DNA of 64,000 nt, from assembly GCA_965263355.1 (NCBI GenBank), contig CBDHHL010000049.1, forward strand, positions 64,001 through 128,000, given 5' to 3'. The translations under genes and the position numbers were made by a program. Positions 37,721 through 55,707 of the stretch are shown here, one piece after another (position 1 is the stretch's first letter; every line of letters begins with the position of its first letter). The notes under the pieces are model-generated. The model did not search any database, was not told the origin of the DNA, and saw only the letters and a program-made list of their open reading frames with translations. Source of the stretch: Leptolyngbyaceae cyanobacterium. Lineage in GTDB: Bacteria > Cyanobacteriota > Cyanobacteriia > Phormidesmidales > Phormidesmidaceae.

Positions 37721-40552
37721 ATGGGTTATTACGGCAAAATTGGCGATAAAGTTTTCTTTGATGCTAATAATAATGGTCTCCAAGATTATGGTGAAGCTGG
37801 CGTTGAAGGGGTAACAGTTACTCTCCTGGGTGCTGGTTCTGACTGGCGTTTTGGCACCAGCGATGACATCACTCTGACTCAAGTAACTAACTCTAACGGT
37901 AATTACAAATTCTCTGGTCTGCGTTCAGGCAAGTATAAGGCTTTCTTCACTGACATCCCCGCTGGTTTTCAATTCACTACTCCTGACGTAGGTAAATACA
38001 AATACAGCATTGACTCCGATGTAATCGATTTTGCTACCGGAGGCACCGATGTCATCTATCTAAAGTCATACGAGTCTAACCTCAAAATTGATGCTGGTCT
38101 CATAGCACTCCCCAACGCTAACCCGGATGCAGTTGATAATTTTTACACTGTGTCAGCTGGCAACATCATCAATATTCCGGCAGGCAATAACACCAATCCC
38201 CTGGGCAATGACATCGATGCCGATGGCGATGCATTATTTGTTCAAGCCCTCAACGGTGAAGACTTGACGATTGGTGGCGATGACTTTGATTTTGCCGATG
38301 GTAGCACTGGCGGTCAGTTTACTATCTTCCAAAATGGTCAATTTAGCTTTGATCCCCAAGGTGACTTCAATGACCTATTTATAGGCGAATTCCGCGACAC
38401 GACCGTTCAATACACCATTGCTGATGGTAAAGGCGGTACTGATACTGCAAACATTACTGTCCGAGTCGAAGGGCAACAAGTTCGTAATAACGACCCCAAT
38501 GCCGCTGATGACATTGCCACTGCTGCGTTCAATAGCCCCGTTGTATTCAATGTGTTAGGTAATGACAGTGACCCCGATGGTGACCCCTTGAGTGTTACCT
38601 CCATCAATGGTCAGTCCGTTTCCCCTGGCGATTCCGTTAATGTTGGCGATGGTATCGTAACTCTGTTTGGCGACGGTTTCTTAGACTTTACGCCTAATGC
38701 AGGTTTTGTTGGTGATGCCACCTTCGAATATCATGCTGACGATGGCAATGGCGGTGAAGACACGGCTAATGTGACGGTGACGGTTAACGGTCCGGTTAAC
38801 AATGATCCCAATGCCAATGATGACAGTGCTACCACGCCTCTCGACACGCCGGTTCTGCTCAATGTGTTGGGTAATGACAGTGACCCCGATGGTGACCCCT
38901 TGAGTGTTACCTCCATCAATGGTCAGTCCGTTGCCCCTGGCGACACGGTTGATGTTGGCGACGGTACTGTATCCGTGCTTAACAACGGCTCATTGTTCTT
39001 TACGCCGGATGCTGGCTTCACAGGCGATGCCACCTTCGAATACCATGCCGATGATGGCAATGGCGGTGAAGATCTGGCTAACGTGACGGTCACGGTTAAC
39101 GGTCCGGTTAACAATGATCCCAATGCCAATGATGACAGTGCTACCACGCCTCTCGACACGCCGGTTCTGCTCAATGTGTTGGGTAATGACAGTGACCCCG
39201 ATGGTGACCCCTTGAGTGTTACCTCCATCAATGGTCAGTCCGTTGCCCCTGGCGACACGGTTGATGTTGGCGACGGTACTGTATCCGTGCTTAACAACGG
39301 CTCATTGTTCTTTACGCCGGATGCTGGTTTCACAGGCGATGCCACCTTCGAATACCATGCCGATGATGGCAATGGCGGTGAAGATCTGGCTAACGTTACA
39401 GTGACGGTTAACGGTCCGGTTAACAACGCAAGTGTTGGCGATACGGTTTTCTTGGATGCTAATGGCAATGGTATTCAGGATGCTGGTGAATCTGGTGTTC
39501 AAGGGGTACAGGTTACCCTGACTGGTGCTGGCAATGATGGCGTAATTGGCACCGCTGATGACACCACGGCTACCGAGTTCACCAATGGAACTGGTAACTA
39601 CCAATTTGGCAACCTTGCTGCTGGCGACTACAAAGTTACCTTCTCTGGCCTACCGGCTGGTTTTGAGTTCACAACACCTAATGTGGGCAGTGACAGCCTC
39701 GACTCCGATGCTGACCCCTTCACAGGTAAGACTGACGTCTTTACCCTGGCAGCGGGTGAGAGTAATCAGACTATCGATGCTGGTTTGGTGCAAACAGCAC
39801 CGCCCGCTGGCGATAAAGACCGTGACTGCGTCTTCTTGGATGCCAATGGCAATGGTGTTCTTGATGCCGGTGAGTCTGGTGTCGCAGGTGTAACCGTTAC
39901 CCTAAACGGTGCGGGTGCTGACAATCTCTTTGACACTGCTGATGATATCACGGCCACGGATGTCACTGATGCTAATGGCTATTATCAGTTCGCTAACATC
40001 ACGGCTGGTGACTATCAGGTGACCTTCTCTAACTTGCCCTCTGGTTTTGAATTTACCACGGCTAATGTTGGTGATGACAGATTCGATTCTGATGCTGACC
40101 CAGCTACTGGCAAGACTCAAATTGTTGGCCTCGCTGACGGTGCTACTATTCTGAGTCTAGATGCGGGTCTAGTGGCGGTTTCTGGTGGTGTCAATATCAT
40201 TCCAGGTACATCTGGCAACGATGACCTCATCGGTACATCCGGTGCTGATCGTTTAGTTGGCTTCGGTGGCATTGATAGACTGACGGGTAACGACGGTCCT
40301 GATATCTTTGTGCTTGGTGATGAGACAGGTGGCTTCTACGATAAGCACGGTTATCAAGACTTCGCTGACATTATTGACTTCGCAGCGGGGCAAGATACTA
40401 TCCAACTGAACGGTTCTATGGGTGATTACGCCTTTAAGGCTGTCAATGGGGGTACTTGGATCTTCCAGGGTGATGAGCATAGCGGAGAGTTGGTGGCTGA
40501 TGTCTTCAATGCGTCCGTCAGCGATGTAAAGGCGAGTGTTCAATTTGTCTAA
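37721..40552 (+). CDS. Secreted/surface repeat protein: SdrD-B-like domains, cadherin/Ig-like repeats, RTX-like C-terminus
   Basis: Three (GD)xVFxDANxNG...G(A/E)xGV...IDAGL-type units; NDSDPDGDPL repeats; GxxGxDxL nonapeptides; no evident signal peptide. Confidence 0.88.
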   Translation: MGYYGKIGDKVFFDANNNGLQDYGEAGVEGVTVTLLGAGSDWRFGTSDDITLTQVTNSNGNYKFSGLRSGKYKAFFTDIPAGFQFTTPDVGKYKYSIDSDVIDFATGGTDVIYLKSYESNLKIDAGLIALPNANPDAVDNFYTVSAGNIINIPAGNNTNPLGNDIDADGDALFVQALNGEDLTIGGDDFDFADGSTGGQFTIFQNGQFSFDPQGDFNDLFIGEFRDTTVQYTIADGKGGTDTANITVRVEGQQVRNNDPNAADDIATAAFNSPVVFNVLGNDSDPDGDPLSVTSINGQSVSPGDSVNVGDGIVTLFGDGFLDFTPNAGFVGDATFEYHADDGNGGEDTANVTVTVNGPVNNDPNANDDSATTPLDTPVLLNVLGNDSDPDGDPLSVTSINGQSVAPGDTVDVGDGTVSVLNNGSLFFTPDAGFTGDATFEYHADDGNGGEDLANVTVTVNGPVNNDPNANDDSATTPLDTPVLLNVLGNDSDPDGDPLSVTSINGQSVAPGDTVDVGDGTVSVLNNGSLFFTPDAGFTGDATFEYHADDGNGGEDLANVTVTVNGPVNNASVGDTVFLDANGNGIQDAGESGVQGVQVTLTGAGNDGVIGTADDTTATEFTNGTGNYQFGNLAAGDYKVTFSGLPAGFEFTTPNVGSDSLDSDADPFTGKTDVFTLAAGESNQTIDAGLVQTAPPAGDKDRDCVFLDANGNGVLDAGESGVAGVTVTLNGAGADNLFDTADDITATDVTDANGYYQFANITAGDYQVTFSNLPSGFEFTTANVGDDRFDSDADPATGKTQIVGLADGATILSLDAGLVAVSGGVNIIPGTSGNDDLIGTSGADRLVGFGGIDRLTGNDGPDIFVLGDETGGFYDKHGYQDFADIIDFAAGQDTIQLNGSMGDYAFKAVNGGTWIFQGDEHSGELVADVFNASVSDVKASVQFV
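38486..39421 (+). repeat. Three tandem 312-bp (104-aa) Ig/cadherin-like coding repeats
   Basis: Units start at 38486, 38798 and 39110; units 2 and 3 are nearly identical in DNA. Confidence 0.92.
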
Positions 40553-40590
40553 GACAGTTTGTCTTTGACAAAACCACTAGTCATTAGTTA

Positions 40591-40634
40591 AAAAACAGGC
40601 AATCTCTCATCAGAGATTGCCTGTTTTGGTTTTT
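40591..40634. terminator. Likely bidirectional intrinsic terminator
   Basis: AAAACAGGCAATCTCT-catc-AGAGATTGCCTGTTTT perfect stem between convergent genes. Confidence 0.85.
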
Positions 40635-40681
40635 ATGTCCTCATCTACCCAGCCTCACTCAGGACTGAGATTATTACCTAC

Positions 40682-42121
40682 CTATGGCGTCGGCGCCCAA
40701 ATTCCCTGGAAACCCAAGGGCACTACCTGGAGTAAGGCTAACCGACACACGGGGTCGTGATCTAAATGAGCGGCGTCAAAAATCCATAGTTCACTGCGAT
40801 CGCAATCACCATTGAAAACCACCGTCAATATCCAGCCTGGGTCTGTTGTATTGGGCCTTGGCGCATAGATTGGCAGCGAGGGCCAACAGTTCTCCTCAAA
40901 GTGGGTTTCTTTAAGAGTGCCTGTTTGATGGTCAAACTGGGCGATCGCCCCAGGCAAATCGTCACCACTGATCGAATCAGGTCGTTGCACCGATAGATAC
41001 GTATATCGCCAGGGTCTACCCACATCAGTGGGGGCAGTTGTGGGAAACTCACAGCCGCGATCAAAAAGTTGCTGCTTTTCAATTACCTTGGCTGATTGTG
41101 GATCAATCCGAATCTGCCAAAGAGTACCTGGAGCTGTTGTCTGGGTTTGGCCAGTAAGCACCTCCTGTAAAAACTGATTAATATCAGGAAAGTTTGGATA
41201 ACATACAATATTGGTGAGAATTGAGCCATCGCTATCGTCACAACTATTACCAAATCGCCATTGAAACCAGGTATCAGCCGTACTCCGACTGACCACCGAA
41301 AAGGTCTGACGATCAATCACCAAAACCTGTGTTCCTTTGTTAGGCTTCCAACTCAGCGCTTGACTAAAGCTTTTTTGCTTTGTGAGAAATGGCAATACAT
41401 TCAACGAAACCGGAGGGATGAAAAATATCAGATAGTTCTGAGTCAGGGCAAAATCATGGATCAGGGGTTGTTGCTTGAGACTGTGGTTAGCCTTTTGTAG
41501 TAACTTTCCTGTGGAACTATGACGATATAGATGTAACTGCGCCTGGGGGCCATAGCTGATGCCAAAATTAAAGATTTCTCCCGTCTCTGGATCGATTTTA
41601 GGCAGAACAGCATAGGGCGCATCTGCAGATAACCCCAATGACCTTTCTAGACCAACCGTTTTGAGTGTGTGCCGATGGAGCGCGTGGGGAGCACCAATCC
41701 CCCAAAGTGCCAGCAACCTATCTGGCAGGACTAGCAGTCCAGAATTAGCACTATTCTTGACGGGTAAACTAACCTGTTGCCACAATGAGCCCGACGGTGT
41801 TCGATCATATCCACCAAAAAGAAAGCGTCCGGCCTTTTCTTCCGCCTGGTAACCATCCGTTTGAACATAGCGATAAACACCCGTAGCCCCTGCGTCGGCA
41901 AATCGCACCCCCAACACAGCACCATCGCCGTCGAACCAGTGTCGAATACGTTCGCCAGAGCGTTCCAGCAGGCCAGCCCCATTTTGATATAAGCTTCCTC
42001 TCAATTCCAGGGGAATCTCTCCAGAAATCACATCAAGGGAAGCTGACGAAAACTCGACACCAGAATAAGCCATGAGGGCTTCCCAGGGCCGATTCTTTTG
42101 CAATTGGGTCGAAGGGATCAC
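40682..42121 (-). CDS. Carotenoid cleavage oxygenase (RPE65-family) homolog with degenerate iron site
   Basis: GEIPLELRGSLYQNG, HWFDGDG, IHDF, CEFP, ELWIFDA; AAGGAG upstream of the GTG start. Expected AHPK, WHF and GFHG read VLPK, WRF and GFQG. Confidence 0.88.
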   Translation of the reverse strand: MIPSTQLQKNRPWEALMAYSGVEFSSASLDVISGEIPLELRGSLYQNGAGLLERSGERIRHWFDGDGAVLGVRFADAGATGVYRYVQTDGYQAEEKAGRFLFGGYDRTPSGSLWQQVSLPVKNSANSGLLVLPDRLLALWGIGAPHALHRHTLKTVGLERSLGLSADAPYAVLPKIDPETGEIFNFGISYGPQAQLHLYRHSSTGKLLQKANHSLKQQPLIHDFALTQNYLIFFIPPVSLNVLPFLTKQKSFSQALSWKPNKGTQVLVIDRQTFSVVSRSTADTWFQWRFGNSCDDSDGSILTNIVCYPNFPDINQFLQEVLTGQTQTTAPGTLWQIRIDPQSAKVIEKQQLFDRGCEFPTTAPTDVGRPWRYTYLSVQRPDSISGDDLPGAIAQFDHQTGTLKETHFEENCWPSLPIYAPRPNTTDPGWILTVVFNGDCDRSELWIFDAAHLDHDPVCRLALLQVVPLGFQGIWAPTP

Positions 42122-43323: not shown

Positions 43324-46300
43324 TTGATGATTCATTCACCTGAAGGGCAATCAGTTTTAACTAATGATGCCCCTGCGATCGCAATTGTTGGCATGGGTTG
43401 TTATTATCCGGGTGCTAGTGATTTACGCACCCTGTGGGAAAATATTTTGTCTAAGCGACAACAGTTTCGTCGGTCCCTCGACAGCCGGTTGCCTATCGCA
43501 GAGTACTACGATCCAGATCCTGCTACCCCTGACAAAACCTATGGCGATCGGGCGGCAGTGATAGACGGATTTGCATTTGATTGGGTGAAACGGCGAATCC
43601 CAAAGATATCCTTTGAATCTACCGATGTGGTGCATTGGTTGGCCCTAGAAACAGCCCTAAAAGCAATTGAAGATGTTGGCTACACTCGAAAAACTGTTCC
43701 CACTGAACGCACTGGCTTTATTCTGGGGAACACCCTGACGGGAGAACAAACACGTTCCACTACAGTGCGTTTACGTTGGCCGTTTGTCAGGCGGGCTTTG
43801 CAGGCCGCTGCTGCTGCCAAGGGCATGACTGAGGCCACCATAGACGAGTTGGTCTCTTTTATGGAAGGTGTGTATAAATCTGCATTTACCCCCATTACCG
43901 AAGATTCTTTGGCAGGAGGCCTTTCCAATACGATTGCCGGACGAGTTTGCAATTTCTTTGATTTTAAGGGGGGAGGCTACACTGTCGATGGGGCCTGTTC
44001 ATCATCCCTGATTGCCATTGCCACCGCCGCCAATGCTCTGGTCAGTGGTGATCTAGACATGGCCCTGGCTGGAGGGGTCGATATTAGTCTCGACACCTTT
44101 GAACTCATTGGGTTTGCCAAGGTAGGGGCGTTAACAGCCCAAGATATGACGGTTTATGATCGGACCGCCAGTGGATTTATCCCAGGTGAAGGCTGTGGCT
44201 GTGTGGTCATGAAACGTCTGGAAGATGCCCGGCGGGATGGGGATTATGTCTATGCCGTTTTAAATGGCTGGGCCATTTCTTCGGATGGTAAGGGAGGGAT
44301 TACGGCACCGTCCAAGGTGGGACAGTCCAATGCCCTCCAGTGGGCCTACAATCGGGCGGGCTATAGTAGCCATCAACTCGACTTTATTGAAGGTCATGGG
44401 ACCGGCACACCTGTAGGTGACCGCACCGAAATTGAGGGCATCGCCTTAACATTAGCTGCTGATGGTAAGTTGTCTCCCCGCCAGGTAGGGTTGACATCTT
44501 TTAAATCTCTGGTGGGACATACCAAGGCGGCAGCGGGTGTGGGCGGATTTATCAAGACTGTTATAGCGGTCAATCAGCGTGTTTTGCCACCCACCTGTGG
44601 CTGTAAAGAGCCCAACCCTATCTTTGATACGGTGGCCCAAGCCGTTTACCCCATTCTGCAGGGAGAAGTGCGCAGCTCAGATGACACCCTGACAGCAGGA
44701 ATCTCGGCTATGGGGTTTGGTGGCATTAACTGCCATGCCACTATTACCTCCGGGGATACTCCTCGCGATCGCTTAAAGCCCACCCTGCCTGAACGCGCCC
44801 TGATGGTGTCCCATCAGGAAACAGAATTATTTATTTTTAGCGCTGGTACTATCCCTGAGCTGTTGTCACAGGTAAGCGCTGTAGCTAAGGATGCTAGGGA
44901 TATTAGTCTAGCGGAAATGGTGGATTTGGCGGCTCATCTTGCTAAGCAGATAACCCCTCAACAACCTATCAGGGCGGCTGTGATTGCCAATTCTCCTAAG
45001 ACGTTGGTGCAACGGCTGGCCCAATTACAAGATTTAGCCCAGGACCGTCCCTGTGGTCCGGGAACAGTCTTGACAGCCCACCAGGATGGTTTGCCCCAGG
45101 CGGTGTGGCTAAGTCATTCGGCCCGACGAGATCGCGTTGCCTTTCTCTTCCCAGGGCAGGGGTCACAACAGCTGAATATGGCCAGGGTTTTGGTGGAACG
45201 CCATGGCTGGGCTCAAGAGCTACTTCAGCAAACGGATCAATGGTTGGCGGAGATTGACTGTGAGCCCATTAGTACCTACATGTTCCGCTCGACTGATCGG
45301 GCGGCCAATACAGACGAATTAGGGAACTGGATGAAGTCCTTGACCCGAGCTGATATTGCCCCAGCGGCCATCTGTTTTGCGTCATTGTTATGGCACCAAT
45401 ATTTGACCCGATTGGGGATCACCCCCGTTGCGGTGGGGGGCCATAGCTTGGGAGAACTGTCGGCGTTCTATGCGGCGGGTGCCTACGATGCCAAAACCCT
45501 GATTCAGTTTGCAGCAGTGCGCGGTAAAGCGATGCTCTCACCTCAGGGACAAGCGGGCTCGATGGTGAGTTTGGGGTGCGATCTCACCACAGCAGAAAAT
45601 CTTTTGAAACAAATCTCAGGCTATGCCGTTGTCGCCAACATCAACCATCCCCAACAAACCGTAATATCGGGCCATGCCGAAAGTATCAAGCAAGTGCTCC
45701 TAGCAGCAGAACGAGACGTGTTATATGCCCGTCAGCTAGCCGTTGCCAATGCATTCCACTCAGCTCTGGTGGAAGAGGCAGCAGCCCAGGTAAAAGAAAA
45801 GGCACCCATTCCGACAGAACTAACGTCAATTAACATGCCCATTATCTCCGCTATGACAGGTCAGCCTGTCAATGTCGGACTCAAATTGCCTGATTACTTT
45901 GCCCAACAAATCACATCCCAGGTCGACTTTATTTCATTGATCAACACCATCAACCCCCTGTGTGATCTGATGGTCGAAGTGGGAACCGGAAAAGTATTAT
46001 CCAAATTGGCGCAAACCAATTTAGATGGACAACCTGACCGATGCTTTGCAGTGGAAGCAAAGGTGGGAGAAGCCCTGAGTTTGAATACGTTTCTAGGTAA
46101 CTTTTTTGTTCAAGGGGGTGCGATTAAATGGGACATAGTCTATGAAAATCGTATGGTGCGCCCTTACATTTCCCCGTCAGACCGGGTATTTATCGGCAAT
46201 CCCTGCGAAAATCCACTCCAGGTTCCAGAAACCAAACCATTTACCACTGCTCCCTATTCGGGGGCTGTTAACGGCAATACCATGCCTCAAAATGCCTATC

Positions 46301-46434
46301 AACTCTCTGATGATGAGTTAGTTAATGTGCTTTCAGATTACTTTACTCGCCGTGGAGACTTTCTGGCCGAAATTATCCAGGCAGATATGCAGTTTGTTCC
46401 CCTTTCACTAACAGTTAAGCAATATCATGAATAA
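43324..46434 (+). CDS. Enediyne-type (PksE-like) iterative PKS, N-terminal KS-AT part
   Basis: PksE-characteristic GNTLTGE..R....RLRWPFVRR and EDSLAGGLSNTIAGRVCN.FD..GGGYTVDGACSSSL; EGHGTGT; GHTKAAAG; AT GHSLG/NAFHS. The true start may be the ATG at 43327. Confidence 0.9.
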   Translation: MMIHSPEGQSVLTNDAPAIAIVGMGCYYPGASDLRTLWENILSKRQQFRRSLDSRLPIAEYYDPDPATPDKTYGDRAAVIDGFAFDWVKRRIPKISFESTDVVHWLALETALKAIEDVGYTRKTVPTERTGFILGNTLTGEQTRSTTVRLRWPFVRRALQAAAAAKGMTEATIDELVSFMEGVYKSAFTPITEDSLAGGLSNTIAGRVCNFFDFKGGGYTVDGACSSSLIAIATAANALVSGDLDMALAGGVDISLDTFELIGFAKVGALTAQDMTVYDRTASGFIPGEGCGCVVMKRLEDARRDGDYVYAVLNGWAISSDGKGGITAPSKVGQSNALQWAYNRAGYSSHQLDFIEGHGTGTPVGDRTEIEGIALTLAADGKLSPRQVGLTSFKSLVGHTKAAAGVGGFIKTVIAVNQRVLPPTCGCKEPNPIFDTVAQAVYPILQGEVRSSDDTLTAGISAMGFGGINCHATITSGDTPRDRLKPTLPERALMVSHQETELFIFSAGTIPELLSQVSAVAKDARDISLAEMVDLAAHLAKQITPQQPIRAAVIANSPKTLVQRLAQLQDLAQDRPCGPGTVLTAHQDGLPQAVWLSHSARRDRVAFLFPGQGSQQLNMARVLVERHGWAQELLQQTDQWLAEIDCEPISTYMFRSTDRAANTDELGNWMKSLTRADIAPAAICFASLLWHQYLTRLGITPVAVGGHSLGELSAFYAAGAYDAKTLIQFAAVRGKAMLSPQGQAGSMVSLGCDLTTAENLLKQISGYAVVANINHPQQTVISGHAESIKQVLLAAERDVLYARQLAVANAFHSALVEEAAAQVKEKAPIPTELTSINMPIISAMTGQPVNVGLKLPDYFAQQITSQVDFISLINTINPLCDLMVEVGTGKVLSKLAQTNLDGQPDRCFAVEAKVGEALSLNTFLGNFFVQGGAIKWDIVYENRMVRPYISPSDRVFIGNPCENPLQVPETKPFTTAPYSGAVNGNTMPQNAYQLSDDELVNVLSDYFTRRGDFLAEIIQADMQFVPLSLTVKQYHE

Positions 46435-49400
46435 TATCGATTCTGATCAAGAGATGCTGCAATTGCTCTCCCAATATTTTGCGACGAGGGGTAATTTTTT
46501 AGCCCAGGTGATTCGTGCTGATATGCGCACATTACCTGGGCATCAGTTGGCCCAGACCCATAGTGTGAATGGGAGCAATGGCTATAACAACAGCCATAAC
46601 GGCAATGGCTATAACCATCAATTCAACGGTTTATCGACCAATGGTGCGGTCAACAACGGTGCGGTCAACAACGGTGCGGCCAATAACGGTGTACCTCATG
46701 TTCAGGTCGTTACTCCCGTTGCCCCCTCTGTGGTACCTGAAGTAGTACCGAGCCAGACGACGACCCACGACCAGGTGGTAGGTACGTTAGTGAACCTGAT
46801 TGTTGAGAAAACTGGATATCCTCAAGAAAGTATTACATTAGACTCCCGGCTGCTGGATGACCTAAATTTAGATTCCATTAAAGCCGGGGAAGTAGTCGCA
46901 ACAGCAGCCAAGCAATTTGGCGTAACCGGGGACTTAGATCCAACGGCCCTAGCCAATGTCACCCTAGCAGAAGTAGCCCAGGCTATTTGCGACACCCTGC
47001 CCGACGCAGGCCCATTACCAGAGACATCTATCGGTAACAACAACTCTGCCCTGGTGCCCTCGGTTCCCGAGACGAAAAATGTCTCCCAAATGCTGCTGAA
47101 CTTGGTGGAAGAAAGCACTGGCTTTCCCAAATCATCCTTGGCGATGGACATGCGGTTGTTGGATGATTTAAACCTAGATTCCATTAAGGCAGCTGAGCTA
47201 GTGGGACGAGCCGCCAAACAATTGGGCATTGATGGTCAGCTAGACCCCTCCACCCTGGCCAATGCCACCTTAACCGACGTGGCGACTACCCTGGAGAATG
47301 CCGCCACCATGACGGTGCCTGCGCAAGCAGTGAATCCAGCCCTTAAGCCCGCTAAACCGACTGCGATCGCCTTGAGTAAATGGGTGAGAAACTTTGCCGT
47401 TGACTATATAGAAGCGGCCCTGCCCGAACGCACCCCTGAGACCTGGTCTAACGCCAAGGTGAGATTGGTGGCCGATACCTCAGACAGTCCCGTGGTCGCT
47501 GCCCTAGCTGCTCAAATCACCTCCCTGGGTGGAGAGATTGTTCACTCCACATTCACCGAGATTCTATCGGCAGCGGCGGAAACCGGCTATAGCCATATTA
47601 TTGCCGTTTTACCGCAGCCTGCCGAGGCCGCAGAATTATCGTCTCTGCCCCTAGCCGAAATGACCGTGCGGCTAAAGGGCATCACCACCCTGGCCGATGC
47701 CGCTAAGACAGCTTGTGTGGCCTACGTCCAGTTTGGCGGCGGCCAGTTTGGCACAGACTCAGCCCTGGCACCCGAATCCTGTTGTGCCGCCGCCTTTGCC
47801 CGCAGTCTGCATCTGGAGCGTCCCTCTTTGCGAGTTCGGGTGGTAGACCTGGCGTCTGCCCTGGTTCCAGAACAAAGTGCTGAGCTGGTAATCTCAGAGC
47901 TCTCAGGTGAAGAGACTATTGTCACAGCGGGCTACGATGCTGAACAAGTGCGTCGGGTTCCCCAGTCGCGACTGCACCAACCTGCCACCTACACCCCCCG
48001 TGAGCAAAGCTGGTCTAATACCGATGTAATTCTGGTGACCGGTGGTGCTAAGGGAATTACGGCGGAATGTGCCCTGGCCATTGCTGAATCGACAGGGGCG
48101 AAAATGGCCTTGGTGGGTCGCTCGGCAGCGCCTGCCCCCGGCAGCCAGAACGAGATTGCTAAAACGTTGGCTCGATATGGCCAGCAGGATCTGAAGGCTG
48201 AGTATTATTCCTGTGACATTGCCAATCCTGAGGCAGTGGTCACCTTGGTTGAGACTATCACTAAAGAGCTTGGCTCGGTAACTGGCGTTATCCATGGGGC
48301 TGGCTTAAATACCCCCCGTCGGGTAGAACAGGTGAGTTTAGAGGAGGCCCAAAAGGAAGCGGGTCCAAAATTAATCGGAGCGCAAAATCTTCTTCAGGCC
48401 CTCGCTGAGCATCCGCCCAAACTGTTCCTGGCCTTTACCTCCATCATTGGTATCACTGGCATGCCGGGCAACAGCTGGTATGGCTTTGCTAATGAATCTC
48501 TGGCGCTGTTGCTGCGCCGCTTTAATCATCTGCATCCAGAAACTCAGGTGGTCTCCCTGGCCTACAGCGTCTGGGATGAAGTGGGTATGGGGGCTCGCAT
48601 GGGCAGTGTGAAGAACCTGGAACGCATGGGCATTGGGGCCATATCGCCCGAGGAAGGGATTGAGCGCTGTGTCAGACTCTTCCATAATGATCCAGGTGTG
48701 CAGCAGGTGGCCATAGCTGCCCGTCTTGGTGGTTTAGATACCTGGATTCCCATCCCGCAGATTCCCATCGATCAGCTGCGATTTATGGAACGGGTCACCT
48801 ATCTTGAGCCCGGTGTAGAACTCACCGTGCGCACCCATCTCACCCAGGAGAGAGATCTCTATGTCAAGGATCATATCTGGCGAGGGTCCTACCTGTTTCC
48901 CACCGTCTTTGGTTTAGAAGCCATGGCCCAGGCGGCAGCAGTGATATCGGCAGACCCTGAGCCCACCATTGTGCGACTGGAAAATATCTCCCTGCGGCGT
49001 CCCATTGTGGTTAGTCCAGAGACTGGTGTTGAGATTGAAATCCACGCCGAGATGACCGAACTCAACAGCGCTGGTGAGAGGCAAATTAAAATCGGCATTC
49101 GTACTGAACAAACCGGCTTTAACACCGACCACTTCTCTGCCACCCTGGTATTGGGGGAGCGTCAACCCAGTCAAACCCTGAAGCATCAACTTGGTGCGCC
49201 ATTGGCCATTGAGCCCAAACGGGATCTCTACGGCAGTTTACTCTTCCAAGGGGAGCTGTTCCAGCAGATGGATAGTATCTACTCCCTCAGTCGAGAGCAA
49301 AGTCTGCTAGAATCCCATGCCCAAGCCTCAGCCGACTTAACGGAAACCGGCTTCCCCGTTGGCCAGGGCAGTGACTTCCTGCTAGGTGACCCCTATTTAC

Positions 49401-51484
49401 GGGATGTGTTGTTGCAATGTATGCAGCTGAATATTCCTCAAGATATCTGTCTGCCTGTTGAGATTGAACGTATAGACCTGTTTGCAAATCCGCTAACCGG
49501 AGCAGGGCGACGGATCATCACCGCAATTTTGAATGAAAAAATCGACAAAGAATACATTTGTGAGGTAGTTGCCACCGATGAGGTAGGCACCATCATTGAG
49601 CACTTGCACGGCTACCGATTACGGGTCCTAGAAGAACATCCCGAAAACCCCAGCGCAGTAGAATTGGCATCTCCGGAACGGCGGGACCAACAAACCTTAC
49701 AACAAACTCTGACAGTTGCCTGTAGTCAGGTGGGTGTGCAAACACCCACTGTCGCCCTGGGCTACGCCCCTGGACTGGGCGCACAAGCTAAGAAAAAGCG
49801 TCGGCAGATAGAAAAGGGACTTGTTGATCGGGTTATTAAGCGCACCCGTAATCTTGCACCAGACTCTGCGGCTCTCACATTTACTATCCGCACCCACAGC
49901 TCGGGTAAACCCTATCTGAGTGGACAGGCGTTTCAGGATCTGGAGGCTCCTCCAGAGCTTTCTCTGTCCCACGACGATCACTACTGTCTCTGTACGGTGG
50001 CTGATACTCCCCAGGGGTGTGATATCGAATCGGTTAACCATCGCTCTGAGGAAGATTGGGTAGCGCTGTTGAGCAATGCCCGCACCGACATTGTTAATCA
50101 GCTAGTGGCCTCGGGGGACGAGCGAGATGTGGCAGGTACTCGGGTGTGGTCAGCCTTAGAGGCGCTGCATAAGGCTTTTAATGGTATTGATTTCACCCTA
50201 TACCTTCAACAGCGTCAGGACAGCACCGTGTTATTGCATGCCCAAACAGACCAGGGAGATAACTATTATGTTTTGACCCTGCCAGTGCAGCTGACCCGCT
50301 ATCCACAGCGCATGGTGGCGATGGTAGTGAACCTGTCCCCTGAGACATCCACCGTGGGTTCGCCTGTAGGTTCGCCTGGTTCACTCCTGGTAGACGAACA
50401 GCCTGATCCCTATGGCATTATCCGTCCTGGAGAACATCGCACCCGCATCACGGAAGATGGTCCCCAAAATCAACCGGTGTACGAAAAACGGTTCCCAGTT
50501 ACCTTTAAGGAGGGGTGTAGCATAAGCCGTAAAGTAACGGTGTCACAGTATATCAGCTGGGTGGGCAAGATTCGAGAACTGCCATTGAGAAGCATGGCAG
50601 AACAGATGGTGCCCGATTTCCTAAGCGGTGAGTTTGGCATGGTGACTAATAGCGTTACCCTGCGAGTCTTAGGAGAGGCCACTACCTATGACACGATCCA
50701 GGCTCGGTGTTGGTTAGGCAATTTAGTCAACTCGTCCTTCTCCACATATATGGAATTCTGCAAAGTGTTACCCGATGACACCTTAGAACGGGTAGCCATG
50801 GCAGAAGTCCGGGCAACTTGGGTGCGGTTAATCAGCTATGGTATTCCGGCCCCTGAGCCCATGCCAAATTATCTGCAGGCCTATATGGATCAGTTCTGTG
50901 CCAAATTACCTGCCACCATCGATCTAAAAGAATCTCCCACCGATACCTTACAGGTGTTACCCGAAAGTCTATCGGCGATGCAACCAGGGGGTATCCAGTA
51001 TCAGTCTTCTGCAATCCCCCATGGTGATTTAGTGTTTACTGAGGTTTTCCAAACCACCTTAGAAGAGTCCAACCTGGTGGGGAATGTCTACTACGGCAAT
51101 TACTTCATCTGGCAAGGACGGGTGATCGATCTCTTCCTTTACTCCTTGGCCCCCAACTACTTTAGAGTGTCAACAGCGCAGGGAGAAGCGGTCTCACTTT
51201 ACAGCCATATGAACTTTATGCGAGAGGCCATGCCCTTTGATAAAATCCGCGTCAATCTCTATCTCCATAGCGTGACTGACTGTGGAGCAGTATTTAACTT
51301 CGAGTTTTTCCGAGAAATGCCCGGCGACAAGCAAGAAAAACTGCACACAGGACAGCAGGAAGTAATTTGGGCCAACCGTCAAGCCGACGGGTCCCCCATC
51401 CCTGCCTCCTGGCCTGAGGCAATTCGTAAAGCCCTAATTCAACAACAATCCACCTCAAACACCATGGGTTACGCCATGGCGTAG
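46427..51484 (+). CDS. PksE-like iterative PKS, C-terminal part: ACP-ACP-KR-DH-PPTase-hotdog TE x2
   Basis: LLDDLNLDSIK twice; KR VTGGAKGITAECA and WYGFANE; DH DHIWRGSYLFP; PPTase GKP, SLSH, GCDIE, WSALEALHKA; TE EESNLVGNVYYGNYFIWQGR preceded by a diverged copy (YISWVGKIRE). Confidence 0.9.
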   Translation: MNNIDSDQEMLQLLSQYFATRGNFLAQVIRADMRTLPGHQLAQTHSVNGSNGYNNSHNGNGYNHQFNGLSTNGAVNNGAVNNGAANNGVPHVQVVTPVAPSVVPEVVPSQTTTHDQVVGTLVNLIVEKTGYPQESITLDSRLLDDLNLDSIKAGEVVATAAKQFGVTGDLDPTALANVTLAEVAQAICDTLPDAGPLPETSIGNNNSALVPSVPETKNVSQMLLNLVEESTGFPKSSLAMDMRLLDDLNLDSIKAAELVGRAAKQLGIDGQLDPSTLANATLTDVATTLENAATMTVPAQAVNPALKPAKPTAIALSKWVRNFAVDYIEAALPERTPETWSNAKVRLVADTSDSPVVAALAAQITSLGGEIVHSTFTEILSAAAETGYSHIIAVLPQPAEAAELSSLPLAEMTVRLKGITTLADAAKTACVAYVQFGGGQFGTDSALAPESCCAAAFARSLHLERPSLRVRVVDLASALVPEQSAELVISELSGEETIVTAGYDAEQVRRVPQSRLHQPATYTPREQSWSNTDVILVTGGAKGITAECALAIAESTGAKMALVGRSAAPAPGSQNEIAKTLARYGQQDLKAEYYSCDIANPEAVVTLVETITKELGSVTGVIHGAGLNTPRRVEQVSLEEAQKEAGPKLIGAQNLLQALAEHPPKLFLAFTSIIGITGMPGNSWYGFANESLALLLRRFNHLHPETQVVSLAYSVWDEVGMGARMGSVKNLERMGIGAISPEEGIERCVRLFHNDPGVQQVAIAARLGGLDTWIPIPQIPIDQLRFMERVTYLEPGVELTVRTHLTQERDLYVKDHIWRGSYLFPTVFGLEAMAQAAAVISADPEPTIVRLENISLRRPIVVSPETGVEIEIHAEMTELNSAGERQIKIGIRTEQTGFNTDHFSATLVLGERQPSQTLKHQLGAPLAIEPKRDLYGSLLFQGELFQQMDSIYSLSREQSLLESHAQASADLTETGFPVGQGSDFLLGDPYLRDVLLQCMQLNIPQDICLPVEIERIDLFANPLTGAGRRIITAILNEKIDKEYICEVVATDEVGTIIEHLHGYRLRVLEEHPENPSAVELASPERRDQQTLQQTLTVACSQVGVQTPTVALGYAPGLGAQAKKKRRQIEKGLVDRVIKRTRNLAPDSAALTFTIRTHSSGKPYLSGQAFQDLEAPPELSLSHDDHYCLCTVADTPQGCDIESVNHRSEEDWVALLSNARTDIVNQLVASGDERDVAGTRVWSALEALHKAFNGIDFTLYLQQRQDSTVLLHAQTDQGDNYYVLTLPVQLTRYPQRMVAMVVNLSPETSTVGSPVGSPGSLLVDEQPDPYGIIRPGEHRTRITEDGPQNQPVYEKRFPVTFKEGCSISRKVTVSQYISWVGKIRELPLRSMAEQMVPDFLSGEFGMVTNSVTLRVLGEATTYDTIQARCWLGNLVNSSFSTYMEFCKVLPDDTLERVAMAEVRATWVRLISYGIPAPEPMPNYLQAYMDQFCAKLPATIDLKESPTDTLQVLPESLSAMQPGGIQYQSSAIPHGDLVFTEVFQTTLEESNLVGNVYYGNYFIWQGRVIDLFLYSLAPNYFRVSTAQGEAVSLYSHMNFMREAMPFDKIRVNLYLHSVTDCGAVFNFEFFREMPGDKQEKLHTGQQEVIWANRQADGSPIPASWPEAIRKALIQQQSTSNTMGYAMA

Positions 51485-51873: not shown

Positions 51874-53700
51874 ATGACCACTATGCAATGTACTGAAACC
51901 TACGATGTTGTGATTATGGGGGCAGGATTTGCGGGTCTTTGTCAGGCTCGGCATCTCATGCTCAAAATTCCGAACATTAAGATTGCCCTGGTTGATCCGC
52001 GTTCTCCAGAAAGAAGTCCTGAGAAAGATTTGAAGATTGGAGAATCAACGGTGGAAGTTGCGGCGTTGTTTCTCGCTAAGGAACTGGGGCTATACGAATA
52101 TTTGGTAGAAAAACAAGTGCCAAAATTTGGCCTAAATTTTCACTGGCCGAAGACGCCTAAAAACACCCAGAAAATCGACGATTACTATCATATTTGGACC
52201 AATCGCCAGCCAGAAATTGCATCTTTCCAGGTGGATCGGTCTGAATTTGAACAGGACCTGCTCAAGATGAATATTGAGCAGGGTGCCCACTTTATTAATG
52301 GTCGGGTGGTCGATATCGATTTACCCCAGGGAGATGGCATTAATACCGTTAAAGTTCGGGCAAATGGTGAAATCCGAGACCTGAAAGCCAAGCATGTGAT
52401 TGATGCTGCTGGACGTAAGTTTTTGATTGGTAAAAAGACAGATAATCTGTTGTTTGGTCCCGAAAACCTCTACGGATTAAACAATGGCGCAGCCTGGGTC
52501 AGGGTAAAAAATGTTGACCGTGATCTTTTCCACGATGGCTACGATCCGGAGAATACTTCTGTCAGTCATTACTATGCCACCAATCACTACTTTGGTCATG
52601 GCCATTGGCTATGGATGATCCCCATCGACACAGAGAACCAACAACTGTCCATTGGGGTAATGCACCACCATGATGTGCTGGCGGCAAACCAGGTTAACAA
52701 GCAAGAGAAGTTCCTGGCGTTTTTGAAGGCCAATCATACGGTTTTGTACGATCTTATTAAAAGTGGTGAAACCGTTGACTTTCACTATTGGCCCAGGGCT
52801 GCCCACAAATCAAAGACAATGTTCTCCGAAGATAACTGGTATGTGATCGGGGATGCGGCCTGTATCTTTGATGCCTTTTATTCCCAGGGGTCCACGTTAA
52901 CCACCTTTGCCATTGAAGGGGCCACGGAGATTATTCGCTCAAAGCTGGCCCAGGAACCCGATGCTGAGCAAAAACGCGTTGCCTACAACAGCTTTACTCT
53001 GGGATATAACGACTTAGTCAACAGTCTTTATCGCGATCATGACAAACAGCTAGGTGATGCCAGCATTATGAGCTGGCGCATTTACTTTGAATACATTTGG
53101 TGGTTCGGTGTGGTGGTGCCGCTGTATATCGGCAAGTGGCATTTGGACATCGACGTTTGCAACAGAACCGTGAAGATCTTTAACGGTCTATCGAAGCTAT
53201 GGTTCGATGTGTACGATCAGTTTAATGAACTGATTGAGAAACAAGTCAATCTTGGGTTTTTGGACTGTTATCGGGCCGATCAATTAATTTTTGGCTATAC
53301 CACGGCTAAGCATTTTGACGATTTCACTCAGAATGCTAAGTATGAGCCCTTCCGAGTGAATGTGTTTGGCAGTTTGAAGAATGCCTGTTTTTATGCGATC
53401 GCATGGTTAATTAAGTTCAAATGGAAAGGCTTTGGCTTAGCAGGATTGCTCAGCCCTAAAACCATTGGCAATATTGCTTGGGTCTCATCGATTATGGGGC
53501 TAGCCGCTATGGGGGAAATTGTTTTCAAGATTAAAACCATGGGCACCCCTGACAATAGCGACATTGAGCAAATGCGCAAAGAGTTCAAGAGCTATCAGTA
53601 TATCCCTGAACTCCAACCCTCGCTCTTTGAAAAACGTAAGCCTGAAGAGTTATCTGCAGGGGCTGAAAACATCTCTTCAGCAGAACTGGTTAGGAATTAA
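51874..53700 (+). CDS. Flavin-dependent halogenase-like oxidoreductase 1
   Basis: GAGFAG, KIGEST, conserved Lys in PKFGLNF, WLWMIP (WxWxIP), GDAACIFDAFYSQG. Confidence 0.85.
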   Translation: MTTMQCTETYDVVIMGAGFAGLCQARHLMLKIPNIKIALVDPRSPERSPEKDLKIGESTVEVAALFLAKELGLYEYLVEKQVPKFGLNFHWPKTPKNTQKIDDYYHIWTNRQPEIASFQVDRSEFEQDLLKMNIEQGAHFINGRVVDIDLPQGDGINTVKVRANGEIRDLKAKHVIDAAGRKFLIGKKTDNLLFGPENLYGLNNGAAWVRVKNVDRDLFHDGYDPENTSVSHYYATNHYFGHGHWLWMIPIDTENQQLSIGVMHHHDVLAANQVNKQEKFLAFLKANHTVLYDLIKSGETVDFHYWPRAAHKSKTMFSEDNWYVIGDAACIFDAFYSQGSTLTTFAIEGATEIIRSKLAQEPDAEQKRVAYNSFTLGYNDLVNSLYRDHDKQLGDASIMSWRIYFEYIWWFGVVVPLYIGKWHLDIDVCNRTVKIFNGLSKLWFDVYDQFNELIEKQVNLGFLDCYRADQLIFGYTTAKHFDDFTQNAKYEPFRVNVFGSLKNACFYAIAWLIKFKWKGFGLAGLLSPKTIGNIAWVSSIMGLAAMGEIVFKIKTMGTPDNSDIEQMRKEFKSYQYIPELQPSLFEKRKPEELSAGAENISSAELVRN

Positions 53701-53824
53701 TTCACACTTGCACCTGCTTGCAGGCTAGCCGGTTCAAACCCATCGTTTTCAAGTTTTTCATCTTGTTTTCAAATAAACTTCCGTCGTTAAACATTTCACT
53801 TTCTATCGAGGGAAATCTCAAACT

Positions 53825-55666
53825 ATGACCAGCACGTTAATGCGAGAGACAACATATCACGAGACTAAAAACCATAACTACGACGTGGTGATCATAGGGG
53901 CAGGGTTTGCTGGTCTTTGTCAGGCTCGTCACCTGATGCTCAATATTCCTAATCTCAAGATTGCCCTCATCGATCCTCGCCCCATTGAGCGAGGTGATAA
54001 GGACCTCAAAATTGGTGAATCTACCATTGAAATTGCCGCCTTGTTTTTGAGTAAGGAACTGGGTCTGTATGAATATCTGGTGGAAAACCATGTTCCCAAA
54101 ATCGGCTTGAATTTCCACTGGCCAAAGGAGGGCGACAAGACCGAAAAACTTGAGGACTACTATCACATCTGGTCTAACCGTCAGGTATCGATTCCAGCGT
54201 TTCAAATGAATCGAGCTAAGTTAGAGCGTGATTTACTCAAGATGAATCAAGAGATGGGGGTAACATTCTATAACGGTCGCGCCAAAGATGTTGATCTTAC
54301 CCCTGGCGATGCAACTAAGCAGGTCACGGTGAAACTCAAGGGTGAAGAGGTTACCCTCAACTGTAAGCATGTGATCGATGCAGCCGGTCGTAACTTTATC
54401 ATTGGCCGTAAGAAAGATAACGTACTGTCTGGCCCAGAGAATCTCTTAGGTCTGAATAATGGCTCTGCTTGGATGCGGGTTAAAGGCGTAGATCGCTCTA
54501 TTTTTCATGACGGGTACGACCCCAACAATGCCTCCACCAGTCACTATTACGCCACCAATCACTACTTTGGCCATGGTCACTGGCTATGGATGATTCCCAC
54601 CGATAGCAAGACCATGGAAGTGTCCATCGGCATGATGCACCACCACGATCAGCTGCCCGCTGAAGAGGTTAGGACCCAGGAGAAGTTTACTAACTTCTTA
54701 AAGCACAACCACACGATGCTTTATAGGCTGATCGAAAGTGGCGAAGCCATTGACTTTAACTATCGTCCTAAGGTGGCCCACAAGAGTAAGGAGATGTTCT
54801 CCAAAGATAACTGGTATGTGATTGGAGACGCGGCCTATATCTTTGATGCGTTCTACTCCTACGGCACGTCCACGGTAGCGCTGGCGATTGAAAGTGTCAC
54901 CGAAATTATCCGCTCCAAGGTAGCTCAAGAACCCGAAACAGAAGCAAAGCGAGATGCCTTTAACAAGTTCAACCTGATCTTTGCCCTCACCGTTAACTAT
55001 CTCTATCGCGATCACGGTAAGCAGTTGGGCCATGCCAGTGTGATGAGCTGGCGCATCTATTGGGAATATATGTGGTGGTTCGGCATGATGGTGCCCATGT
55101 ATGTCGGTAAGTGGCATATTGACCAAACCTTTATTGACATTTTCTTAGGCATCAACAAGAAAATTGACGGCATGTTCTCCCATATCAACAAGCAGTTCAA
55201 TGAACTGGTGGAACGGGATGCCAACCTGGGGTTAATGGATTGTTATCGGGCAGACCAGCTGATCTGGGGCTACTATACTCCCAAACAGTTTGATAATTAT
55301 CTGGCCAATACAAAGCTGGAACCCCTTCACTGTAATGTCTTTGCCTGCATCAAAAACACCTGTTTCTTTGTGGCAGTGTGGTACGCCAAGTTCCTTTGGA
55401 AGGGCTTTGGTCTCAAGGGCGTGCTGAACCCTAAAAACCTTTACTATCTGATGGTGCTGATGGGCTTTACCATTCAGTCGGCGATTGGTGAGATGGTCTA
55501 CAAGTTTAAGACTAGAGGTCTTTCCAACAATAGTCAGATTACTCAGATGCGTGAGGAGTTTAAGTCTTATCAATACAAGCCTGAACTCCGCTCCTGGATG
55601 ACAGATGTGGCTGCCAAAACTCAGACGATGGCAGACAAAGAATCTGCAGAATACGCGTTCAAATAA
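53825..55666 (+). CDS. Flavin-dependent halogenase-like oxidoreductase 2
   Basis: GAGFAG, KIGEST, PKIGLNF, WLWMIP, GDAAYIFDAFYSYG; clear paralog of its neighbours. Confidence 0.85.
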   Translation: MTSTLMRETTYHETKNHNYDVVIIGAGFAGLCQARHLMLNIPNLKIALIDPRPIERGDKDLKIGESTIEIAALFLSKELGLYEYLVENHVPKIGLNFHWPKEGDKTEKLEDYYHIWSNRQVSIPAFQMNRAKLERDLLKMNQEMGVTFYNGRAKDVDLTPGDATKQVTVKLKGEEVTLNCKHVIDAAGRNFIIGRKKDNVLSGPENLLGLNNGSAWMRVKGVDRSIFHDGYDPNNASTSHYYATNHYFGHGHWLWMIPTDSKTMEVSIGMMHHHDQLPAEEVRTQEKFTNFLKHNHTMLYRLIESGEAIDFNYRPKVAHKSKEMFSKDNWYVIGDAAYIFDAFYSYGTSTVALAIESVTEIIRSKVAQEPETEAKRDAFNKFNLIFALTVNYLYRDHGKQLGHASVMSWRIYWEYMWWFGMMVPMYVGKWHIDQTFIDIFLGINKKIDGMFSHINKQFNELVERDANLGLMDCYRADQLIWGYYTPKQFDNYLANTKLEPLHCNVFACIKNTCFFVAVWYAKFLWKGFGLKGVLNPKNLYYLMVLMGFTIQSAIGEMVYKFKTRGLSNNSQITQMREEFKSYQYKPELRSWMTDVAAKTQTMADKESAEYAFK

Positions 55667-55707
55667 GCCCTTTTTATACCACTAATACCGATTCCCTAGA
55701 CAACTCC

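Follow-up and report, generated by a model that had tools for sequence, protein, structure and literature searches.

Why should two adjacent genes of a cyanobacterium encode proteins of which the first ends, and the second begins, with the same short motif? In the window (the whole stretch of 64,000 nucleotides analysed here) a 33-residue motif lies within the last 33–40 residues of the KS-AT protein of a split polyketide synthase (PKS) and again within the first 37 residues of its partner (table 1). The first-pass annotation, which had given the coordinates and sequences of both copies exactly, took them for a candidate homotypic docking domain. The 17 identities it had counted over 33 gap-free positions, and the divergence of the underlying DNA, are confirmed: 54 of the 99 bases are identical, and the 17 identical residues are written with the same codon in eight cases and with a different codon in nine. 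When the two whole proteins are compared by BLASTP, the motif is the sole significant match (17/32 identical, 81% positives, E 9e-8). When the partner's first 70 residues were shuffled 500 times, the best ungapped 33-residue window had on average 6.8 identities and never more than 10, against the 17 observed.

Table 1. Positions, within the window, of the two genes, the two motif copies and the segments that flank them.
Feature	Position	Strand	Details and basis
KS-AT subunit, split iterative type I PKS	43324..46434	+	ORF list, Pfam, AF2 fold, homologs; 1036-aa ORF from TTG 43324
Flexible linker, post-AT region to C-type copy	46246..46302	+	Residues ~975-993; Pro/Asn/Thr/Gly-rich
C-type motif copy (acidic class; Glu23, Ile24, Gln26)	46303..46401	+	LSDDELVNVLSDYFTRRGDFLAEIIQADMQFVP, residues 994-1026 of 1036-aa ORF
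8-nt gene overlap	46427..46434	+	ATGAATAA; partner start codon within end of KS-AT gene
Partner subunit, ACP-ACP-KR-DH-(PPTase-like)-hotdog thioesterase	46427..51484	+	1685 aa; Pfam
N-type motif copy (neutral/basic class; Gln23, Val24, Arg26)	46439..46537	+	DSDQEMLQLLSQYFATRGNFLAQVIRADMRTLP, residues 5-37 of 1685-aa ORF
Low-complexity linker, N-type copy to first ACP	46538..46780	+	~80 residues; Asn/Gly-rich; translation

What enzyme do the two genes encode? The KS-AT protein contains the Pfam domains ketoacyl-synt (residues 18–302), Ketoacyl-synt_C (310–427) and Acyl_transf_1 (607–886), and its whole-protein AF2 fold, computed from a 36-row alignment that included uncut relatives, has a mean pLDDT of 85.7. 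Its gene probably starts at the ATG at 43327 and not at the TTG at 43324, because the homologs (1031–1044 aa) begin with MIHS... and the database copy of this same protein has 1035 aa. In the partner we find PP-binding twice (best match 120–187), KR (535–717), PKS_DH_N (798–889), PS-DH (920–1073) and 4HBT_2 (1549–1670), together with a PPTase-like region in which ACPS matches residues 1197–1254 at E 0.007, under the Pfam cut-off. The order KS-AT-ACP(n)-KR-DH with a PPTase-like region after it, here spread over two proteins, is that of enediyne PKSs (PKSE) and of PfaA-type PUFA synthases; several relatives are named ‘enediyne polyketide synthase’ in their sources, and the best NCBIfam matches are PKS_plus_SDR and PfaA, all with scores under the curated cut-offs. 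Unlike those types, the partner has a hotdog thioesterase fused at its end, and its PPTase match is weak. The single-module architecture fits what would be an iterative synthase. We propose that the two genes together encode one iterative, enediyne-PKS-like type I PKS that has been cut into halves between the AT and the ACPs.

The 8-nt overlap of the genes and the flexible linkers beside both copies, described in the first-pass annotation, are present. The same arrangement of −8 recurs at one other split locus (L002); at the remaining loci the spacing runs from −1 to +182 nt. The Pro/Asn/Thr/Gly-rich linker of the KS-AT protein (about residues 970–994) varies in sequence among homologs and is unconserved, and residues 975–994 have a pLDDT below 50 in the whole-protein fold. 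Inside the partner's linker lies a 15-nt tandem repeat (46639–46691; period 15, 3.5 copies; Tandem Repeats Finder), and the first ACP starts at residue ~120.

How many copies do related synthases carry? Copies were found by HMMs. Of 126 representatives of the uncut family, 55 have one copy, 71 have none and none has two; the single copy falls at residues ~930–1150, between the AT and the ACP. All 12 split loci in which both halves are visible (the window, L001, L002, L003, L011, G043, G046, G037, G356, G382, G384 and G209) have an adjacent pair of copies. The pattern that had been suggested from the window's sequence, two copies in split homologs and a single one between AT and ACP in unsplit ones, is therefore what we found wherever the uncut relatives have the element at all. 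Since about half of them lack it, the element is not essential to the enzyme class; the list also contained 24 modular PKSs, none of which matched the motif. In the split systems the motif is terminal and conserved. It stands at the C-terminus of eight of eight KS-AT proteins, 3–12 residues before the stop, and is kept among KS-AT proteins that are 66–86% identical overall; 55 of 57 split partners have it inside their first 70 residues, the exceptions being P0069, which lacks it, and P0101, where it occupies residues 116–136. The element has been duplicated, and it is old and under selection, in support of the earlier contention that the split is old and selected: the DNA has diverged, and the protein motif has been kept.

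Might the repeat nevertheless be a neutral scar of gene cutting, left for example by tandem duplication and complementary loss, and without present function? Fission by duplication and complementary degeneration would be expected to leave an overlap segment in both halves. However, the synonymous sites have diverged and the protein motif has not, its retention in every split locus and in nearly all partners extends across genera, the residues that distinguish the two copies are fixed by class, and the motif was copied anew when a further subunit split off (both described below). This explanation is already disfavoured, and we regard it as very improbable.

Are the two copies equivalent? At position 23 all 16 unique C-type copies have Glu, whereas the 51 N-type copies have Gln (38), Lys (10) or Arg (3); among the 77 single copies, 36 have Glu and 18 Asp. 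Position 24 is Leu or Ile in the C-type and Val in 49 of the 51 N-type copies, and the fixed differences between C-type and N-type lie at positions 23, 24 and 26. Mean net charge is −4.75 (range −7 to −3) for the C-type, +0.1 for the N-type and −0.96 for single copies. The pair is consequently not ‘homotypic’, as had been supposed; the copies instead belong to two distinct classes, each conserved, of which the C-type is acidic and the N-type neutral or basic. Such fixed differences are what one would expect from paralogs that complement each other rather than from one self-associating peptide, and together with the charge classes they lend indirect support to a specific binding of the two types.

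Self-association has a claim of its own all the same. Because type I PKSs are homodimers and the uncut enzymes carry one copy per chain, a homodimeric contact would be the simplest ancestral role. Might each copy then have inherited that role, as a self-dimerization element of its own subunit, while the halves meet via other surfaces such as ACP–KS and ACP–AT contacts? Splitting costs the ACP-KR-DH half the KS dimer interface, for which a replacement might be needed, and the element is carried on flexible linkers and is predicted to be unpacked on the KS-AT body. On the other hand, the strongly negative mean charge of the C-type speaks against its self-pairing. The KS-AT protein dimerizes through its KS already, yet it has kept its copy in all eight proteins and all 12 loci. 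An N-type tag is also found on a small protein that consists of ACPs only (at L003 and G046), a carrier protein without obvious need to dimerize. Finally, the classes differ at fixed positions rather than having drifted independently. We think it unlikely that the copies act in this way.

What shape might the motif adopt? In the whole-protein KS-AT model the C-type copy is helical, one continuous helix from 996 to 1023 with a pLDDT of 53–70, the KS and AT domains being mostly above 90; the C-type element is thus predicted to be without confident packing on KS-AT. In an AF2 model of the two-copy segment of the fused proteins P0032 and P0020 (2-row alignment, mean pLDDT 49), each copy instead breaks at a conserved Arg-Gly, giving H10–25/H30–38 and H64–77/H81–91 at a pLDDT of ~50. 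The models therefore differ in the shape of the motif, helix-break-helix against continuous helix, at pLDDT values of 49–70. Prediction of a complex between KS-AT 980–1036 (8-row alignment) and partner 1–48 (34-row alignment) scored 0.12 and 0.01, where the mark is 0.32; made without controls, it weighs neither for nor against mutual binding.

Neither copy of the motif is covered by any Pfam family at E 0.01. At E up to 10, the two termini and the single copy of Derxia returned the chance-level matches DUF4949 and COG3_C and no docking family. A profile of 14 motif copies, searched at E up to 10 over every PDB chain, matched one unrelated lipoprotein (E 0.49) and no PKS chain, and the best score in the ESM Atlas was 0.84, below the useful range. 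Since Pfam, the PDB and the Atlas gave no relative, the motif is without independent functional annotation.

Could both copies bind a common third surface, whether the KS-AT body, an ACP or a trans-acting tailoring enzyme, so that the N-type docks and the C-type is a competing or regulatory remnant? At some PKS junctions a terminal peptide does bind a catalytic domain, as the excerpted text of PMC9113145 relates for DHD domains and for SLiM/β-hairpin docking. Against this, the KS-AT fold, with its 36-row alignment, places the C-type helix nowhere with confidence and leaves its flanks below a pLDDT of 50. A remnant, moreover, would lose its class signature, which every one of the 16 unique C-type sequences retains, and the charge complementarity of the classes would go unexplained. 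A shared third surface seems to us unlikely.

Three variants of the tagged system occur in nature. In a three-subunit variant at two Dolichospermum-like loci (L003 and G046), an oxoamine-synthase-like gene lies between the genes for an ACP-only protein of ~245 aa and a KR-DH protein, and each of these two proteins begins with its own N-type tag, the tags being identical at 28 of 52 residues. In P0020 and P0032, fused proteins of ~2700 aa, both copies are kept ~22 residues apart, each with the correct class signature. Thirdly, the trees of the two halves disagree. With two Actinomadura relatives of 1968 aa as outgroup, which lack the motif and which we take to be canonical enediyne synthases, the split KS-AT halves all group, together with the two fused proteins, in a single clade (SH-aLRT 100), whereas the split KR-DH halves fall in three places; a single KR-DH clade is rejected (p-AU 8.9e-6, for a group chosen after the first tree had been seen). 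We reject three independent splits, each with its own duplication, since the split KS-AT halves all belong to that clade; the scattered KR-DH halves appear better explained by an exchange of partners. As for the fused proteins, in the KR-DH trees they lie within groups of split forms with a support of 99–100, which favours re-fusion over intermediates that precede the fission, although the KS-AT tree gives them a basal position in the split clade. The double N-tags, the fused two-copy proteins and the single KS-AT clade with its scattered partners lend support to what may be a portable docking tag.

Which known system does this pair resemble? The class 1 and class 2 docking domains of cis-AT modular PKSs (DEBS- and curacin-type) have the same task, the joining of subunits via terminal helical peptides. 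They connect an ACP to a KS from one module to the next, and the two sides of a pair do not resemble each other; in contrast to them, the window's termini match no Pfam docking family at E up to 10. The closest described analogue is the helix-turn-helix pair of trans-AT PKSs. The excerpts of PMC9113145 describe, at split modules of trans-AT PKSs, pairs of ~25-residue domains that have a hydrophobic core, with salt bridges for specificity, and four-α-helix-bundle (‘double-helix pair’) docking domains in VirA/VirFG (PDB 2N5D) and in macrolactin MlnD/MlnE. Measured against those excerpts, the window's copies are likewise short (~25–33 residues in the two systems), sit at an upstream C-terminus and a downstream N-terminus of a junction inside a module, are helical (here by prediction), have one hydrophobic face together with charged positions that possibly give specificity, and are portable between catalytic contexts. 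They differ in having no sequence relation to such pairs, 2N5D for example, that the PDB profile or Pfam could detect, and in their host, which is a cis-AT iterative, enediyne-PKS-like enzyme with its own AT, cut between AT and ACP. They differ also in descent: the window's partners are paralogs of one another and of the internal element of uncut relatives, a relationship that section 9 of PMC9113145, in its excerpted part, does not remark on for the trans-AT pairs. The contrast with the usual heterologous PKS docking pairs, drawn in the first-pass annotation, therefore stands for origin and context and falls for principle, because docking of helix against helix is already known in trans-AT PKSs, according to the same excerpts of PMC9113145.

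A second likeness concerns the undivided enzymes. Modular PKSs have a dimerization element (DE), a short ordered segment next to the KR that stabilizes the module dimer, as PMC6155766 describes it. The single-copy ancestor that we propose would similarly have carried a short internal helical element, between the AT and the downstream domains, that would pair with its counterpart in the homodimer. Unlike the DE, however, the element of the window's family precedes ACPs and not the KR and has no sequence match in Pfam, and its self-association is a proposal.

How, then, might the pair have arisen? Like many of the uncut relatives today, the ancestor would have had one short amphipathic helical element at the AT/ACP site, with flexible linkers on both sides. 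In one cyanobacterial lineage the element would have been duplicated and the gene cut between the copies, so that one copy came to close the KS-AT half and the other to open the ACP-KR-DH half; the copies would then have specialized into the acidic C-type and the neutral or basic N-type. They would pack helix against helix in a small bundle that returns the ACPs and the reducing domains to the KS-AT dimer. We infer both the mutual binding of the two types and the geometry of their contact. At a probability of roughly 0.6, we favour the reading of the two copies as a paralogous helical docking pair that reunites the halves of the split PKS.

What role might the element play in the uncut synthases? 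Tentatively, and with the odds somewhat against us, we suggest that it is a symmetric self-pairing helix which keeps both ACP tethers on the axis of the dimer, that its duplication turned this into an asymmetric heteromeric contact (Glu23 retained by the acidic C-type, Arg26 by the basic N-type) which made gene fission viable, and that the tag pair then became a portable connector. If so, it would account for one KS-AT lineage recruiting three unrelated reducing halves, for a three-subunit version made by copying the N-type tag and for the tolerance of re-fusion. It would also be a natural, datable case of a docking-domain pair arising de novo from a dimer interface.

PKSs are cut and recombined chiefly by way of their docking domains. 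Within the literature covered, from which subscription journals were mostly absent, we found little on how docking domains originate and nothing that describes this motif or docking in split synthases of the enediyne/PUFA type. The present locus lets such an origin be read from sequence, from internal element through duplication and cut to complementary classes and natural reuse, which took in the exchange of partners, a tag on a third subunit and renewed fusion of the halves. Should the two peptides bind, they would offer a small natural pair with which iterative enediyne- or PUFA-type synthases could be split at the AT/ACP boundary, and specificity would most obviously be sought at positions 23, 24 and 26, which define the classes.

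How is the synthase of the window divided? Two overlapping forward-strand genes encode one synthase in two pieces, a KS-AT subunit and a partner subunit (first table). The PPTase-like match in the partner is weak (E 0.007, under the cut-off). For both proteins PKS_plus_SDR and PfaA are the nearest NCBIfam families, with scores under the curated cut-offs, and several close relatives carry the source-database name 'enediyne polyketide synthase'; we call the enzyme an enediyne-PKS-like iterative type I PKS. The first gene probably starts at ATG 43327, because its homologs begin MIHS. The two genes share 8 nt (ATGAATAA), the overlap claimed by the first-pass annotation, and across split loci the spacing at this junction runs from -8 to +182 nt.

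Coordinates of features in the window, in relatives' loci and in fused homologs (residues for P0020 and P0032).
Feature	Position	Strand	Content
KS-AT subunit (ORF)	43324-46434	+	1036 aa; KS and AT domains
Partner subunit (ORF)	46427-51484	+	1685 aa; two ACPs, KR, DH, PPTase-like, C-terminal hotdog thioesterase
C-type motif copy	46303-46401	+	end of KS-AT subunit
N-type motif copy	46439-46537	+	start of partner
15-nt tandem repeat	46639-46691		3.5 copies, 92% matches
Three tandem genes, downstream of synthase	51874-57492	+	~600-aa FAD-dependent halogenase-like proteins (likely tailoring enzymes)
Separate hybrid cluster, upstream	199-36396	+	
Genes between the two clusters	37721-42121	+; -	943-aa surface protein (+); carotenoid-oxygenase (RPE65) gene (-)
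Three-subunit synthase form	L003:8468-12973		ACP-only protein, 458-aa putative oxoamine-synthase-like protein, KR-DH protein
Three-subunit synthase form	L043 (G046):4036-9282	reverse	as in L003
KS frame break	L003:6160-6168	+	
KS frame break	L043 (G046):1595-1604	reverse	
KS frame break	L011:7965-11023		
Tandem motif copies	P0020:989-1071		fused protein
Tandem motif copies	P0032:1003-1086		fused protein

The three halogenase-like proteins match Trp_halogenase at E 1e-11 to 1e-14, the first two being 61% identical, and are likely tailoring enzymes of the synthase cluster. ORFs of 612 and 619 aa likewise lie downstream of the synthase in two relatives' loci, L001 and L002. The upstream hybrid cluster contains two fatty-acid desaturase genes, a 4367-aa two-module PKS, a 3265-aa PKS-NRPS, a 1138-aa NRPS, a 1888-aa PKS with a terminal thioesterase and an MFS transporter. 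The surface protein has cadherin-like and SdrD B-like repeats; neither its gene nor the RPE65 gene has an evident link to the motif of the split synthase.

What do the two subunits have in common? The first-pass annotation gave the exact positions of the 33-residue stretches, which align without gaps at 17/33 identities. When the whole KS-AT protein was compared with the whole partner by BLASTP, the motif was the sole match of note (E 9e-8); shuffling the first 70 residues of the partner 500 times gave at most 10 identities in any window, against 17 observed. The DNA of the copies is identical at 54/99 positions, and 9/17 conserved residues are encoded by differing codons. By these figures the duplication is old and its protein sequence constrained. 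Low-complexity linkers flank both copies, as had been described: KS-AT residues 975-994 are modelled at pLDDT <50, against mostly >90 for the catalytic core, and the N-terminal copy is followed by an Asn/Gly-rich stretch of ~80 residues with a 15-nt tandem repeat. The latter encodes NGAVN repeats in the linker separating the N-type tag from the first ACP; the length of this linker is probably variable.

How many copies do uncut relatives carry? One had been predicted, against two in split homologs. A motif HMM was run over all fetched sequences. Among the best 150 KS-AT representatives from a library of 1.84 billion proteins, 24 were large modular PKSs and gave no match; the other 126 held one copy in 55, none in 71 and two in 0. 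The single copies lie at residues ~930-1150, directly past the AT, and their carriers include Derxia, Laceyella, a Polyangiales MAG and many Nostocales. The pair was present in 12/12 split loci with both halves visible, that is, the window, L001, L002, two further relatives' loci (L003, L011) and seven of 401 sampled cyanobacterial genomes. Any motif match occurred in 12 genomes of that sample: nine had adjacent pairs (two of which contain L001 and L011) and three had single copies only, in ORFs of 2121-2293 aa; one of the nine has an additional single copy in a separate 2296-aa ORF. The predicted difference in copy number is thus borne out. The motif stands at the end of KS-AT proteins in 8/8 and within the first 70 residues of split partners in 55/57, the exceptions being P0069, which lacks it, and P0101 (residues 116-136). 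That the repeat is a neutral scar is very improbable, given this conservation.

Are the copies of one kind? We compared unique C-terminal (n=16), N-terminal (n=51) and single copies (n=77; second table). All three share Arg17, Phe20, Ile25 and Asp28 with little or no variation. Each daughter copy retained some features of the ancestral pattern but not the others, and the charges became opposite; in C-type and N-type copies alike, conservation of the first helix reaches ~4 residues further N-terminal than in single copies. Since the classes have the look of a complementary pair, 'homotypic', the term of the first-pass annotation, is the wrong word; its reading of an old, selected duplication that would serve reassembly was right in substance.

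Residues and charge that distinguish the motif classes.
Feature	C-type	N-type	Single
Position 23	Glu 16/16	Gln 38, Lys 10, Arg 3; never acidic	Glu 36, Asp 18
Position 24	Leu/Ile	Val 49/51	Val 67/77
Position 26	mostly Gln (7; Arg 3, Lys 3)	Arg 31, Lys 7	Arg 47, Lys 13
Mean net charge	-4.75 (range -7 to -3)	+0.1	-0.96

On what might the motif pack? Hydrophobic residues recur at positions 6, 7, 10, 13, 14, 20, 21, 24, 25 and 29. So spaced, they form a single broad apolar face; an element of this size has no room for its own core and must pack on something. In the whole KS-AT fold, made on a 36-row alignment (mean pLDDT 85.7), it forms a helix at residues 996-1023 with pLDDT 53-70 between disordered stretches, and so is not confidently packed on KS-AT. 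The natural two-copy segment folded poorly (pLDDT 49), with two helices per copy separated by a break at Arg-Gly. Binding of both copies to a third surface is quite unlikely, as this KS-AT model and the charge classes both speak against it. We infer that the C-type and N-type helices would pack together as a small bundle by which the KS-AT dimer holds the ACPs and reducing domains; the long linkers would give the ACPs reach. In uncut enzymes, the single copy may pair with its twin across the homodimer.

How does the tag behave when the synthase is divided further? In L003, from a Dolichospermum MAG, and in the complete genome G046, a gene for what we read as a putative oxoamine-synthase-like enzyme stands between those for the ACP-only and KR-DH proteins. 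Each of these two proteins starts with its own N-type tag (mutually identical at 28/52 residues and 104/156 bases), and the AT-containing protein ends in a C-type tag. Judged by sequence, a tag copied at each splitting-off of a piece behaves as an address label. Dimerisation of each subunit by its own copy is unlikely: a tag on an ACP-only protein fits it poorly, as does the very acidic C-type. The C-terminal tail of the ACP-only protein and the N-terminus of the inserted enzyme resemble a further, different docking pair. Each of the three Dolichospermum-type loci (L003, L043 of G046, and L011) has its KS split over two frames, with the break at about residue 250; in two of them the break falls at a G-run within conserved LAGGVD codons (G9 in L003, G10 in G046), for which codon count gives eight G in frame. 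Candidate causes are an error in homopolymer sequencing, slippage or phase variation at the site, and gene decay.

The two fused homologs, P0020 and P0032 (~2700 aa), carry both copies ~22 residues apart, with the C-type signature in the first and the N-type in the second; the joint of P0020 still reads as a C-terminal tail, then Met plus an N-terminus. Their nesting among split forms in KR-DH trees (support 99-100) points to probable re-fusions of split genes; given their place at the base of the split clade in the KS-AT tree, they may be intermediates. The two fused proteins fall in a single clade (SH-aLRT 100) with every split KS-AT half, those of the Dolichospermum type and of a second group with ~1150-aa partners among them. 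The KR-DH regions of split synthases fall with three separate sets of uncut enzymes; a single KR-DH clade, a group named after the first tree was seen, is rejected (lnL difference 139.5, p-AU 8.9e-6). The differing histories imply exchange of downstream halves between clusters; one fission, then such exchange with the tag pair as constant connector, is the simplest reading.

Among described systems, the ~25-residue helix-turn-helix docking pair of trans-AT PKSs comes closest; according to PMC9113145 (section 9), it also lies at split-module junctions, is portable, and combines a hydrophobic core with salt bridges for specificity. On our reading the present pair would work like it but is not a member, because the motif has no PDB or Pfam match, a cis-AT iterative synthase hosts it, the cut lies between AT and ACP, and both sides are paralogous to an internal element. 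For the proposed ancestral role, the dimerisation element of modular PKSs (PMC6155766) is the nearest analogue. Cyanobacterial enediyne-type clusters are treated as cryptic in passages of PMC4247773 and bioRxiv 10.1101/2022.10.12.511943, and in the literature found, these passages included, there is no mention of the motif or of docking in these synthases.

P0020 and P0032 would offer the proposed complex as one natural chain. The evolutionary history of the proposed docking pair is unusually legible.
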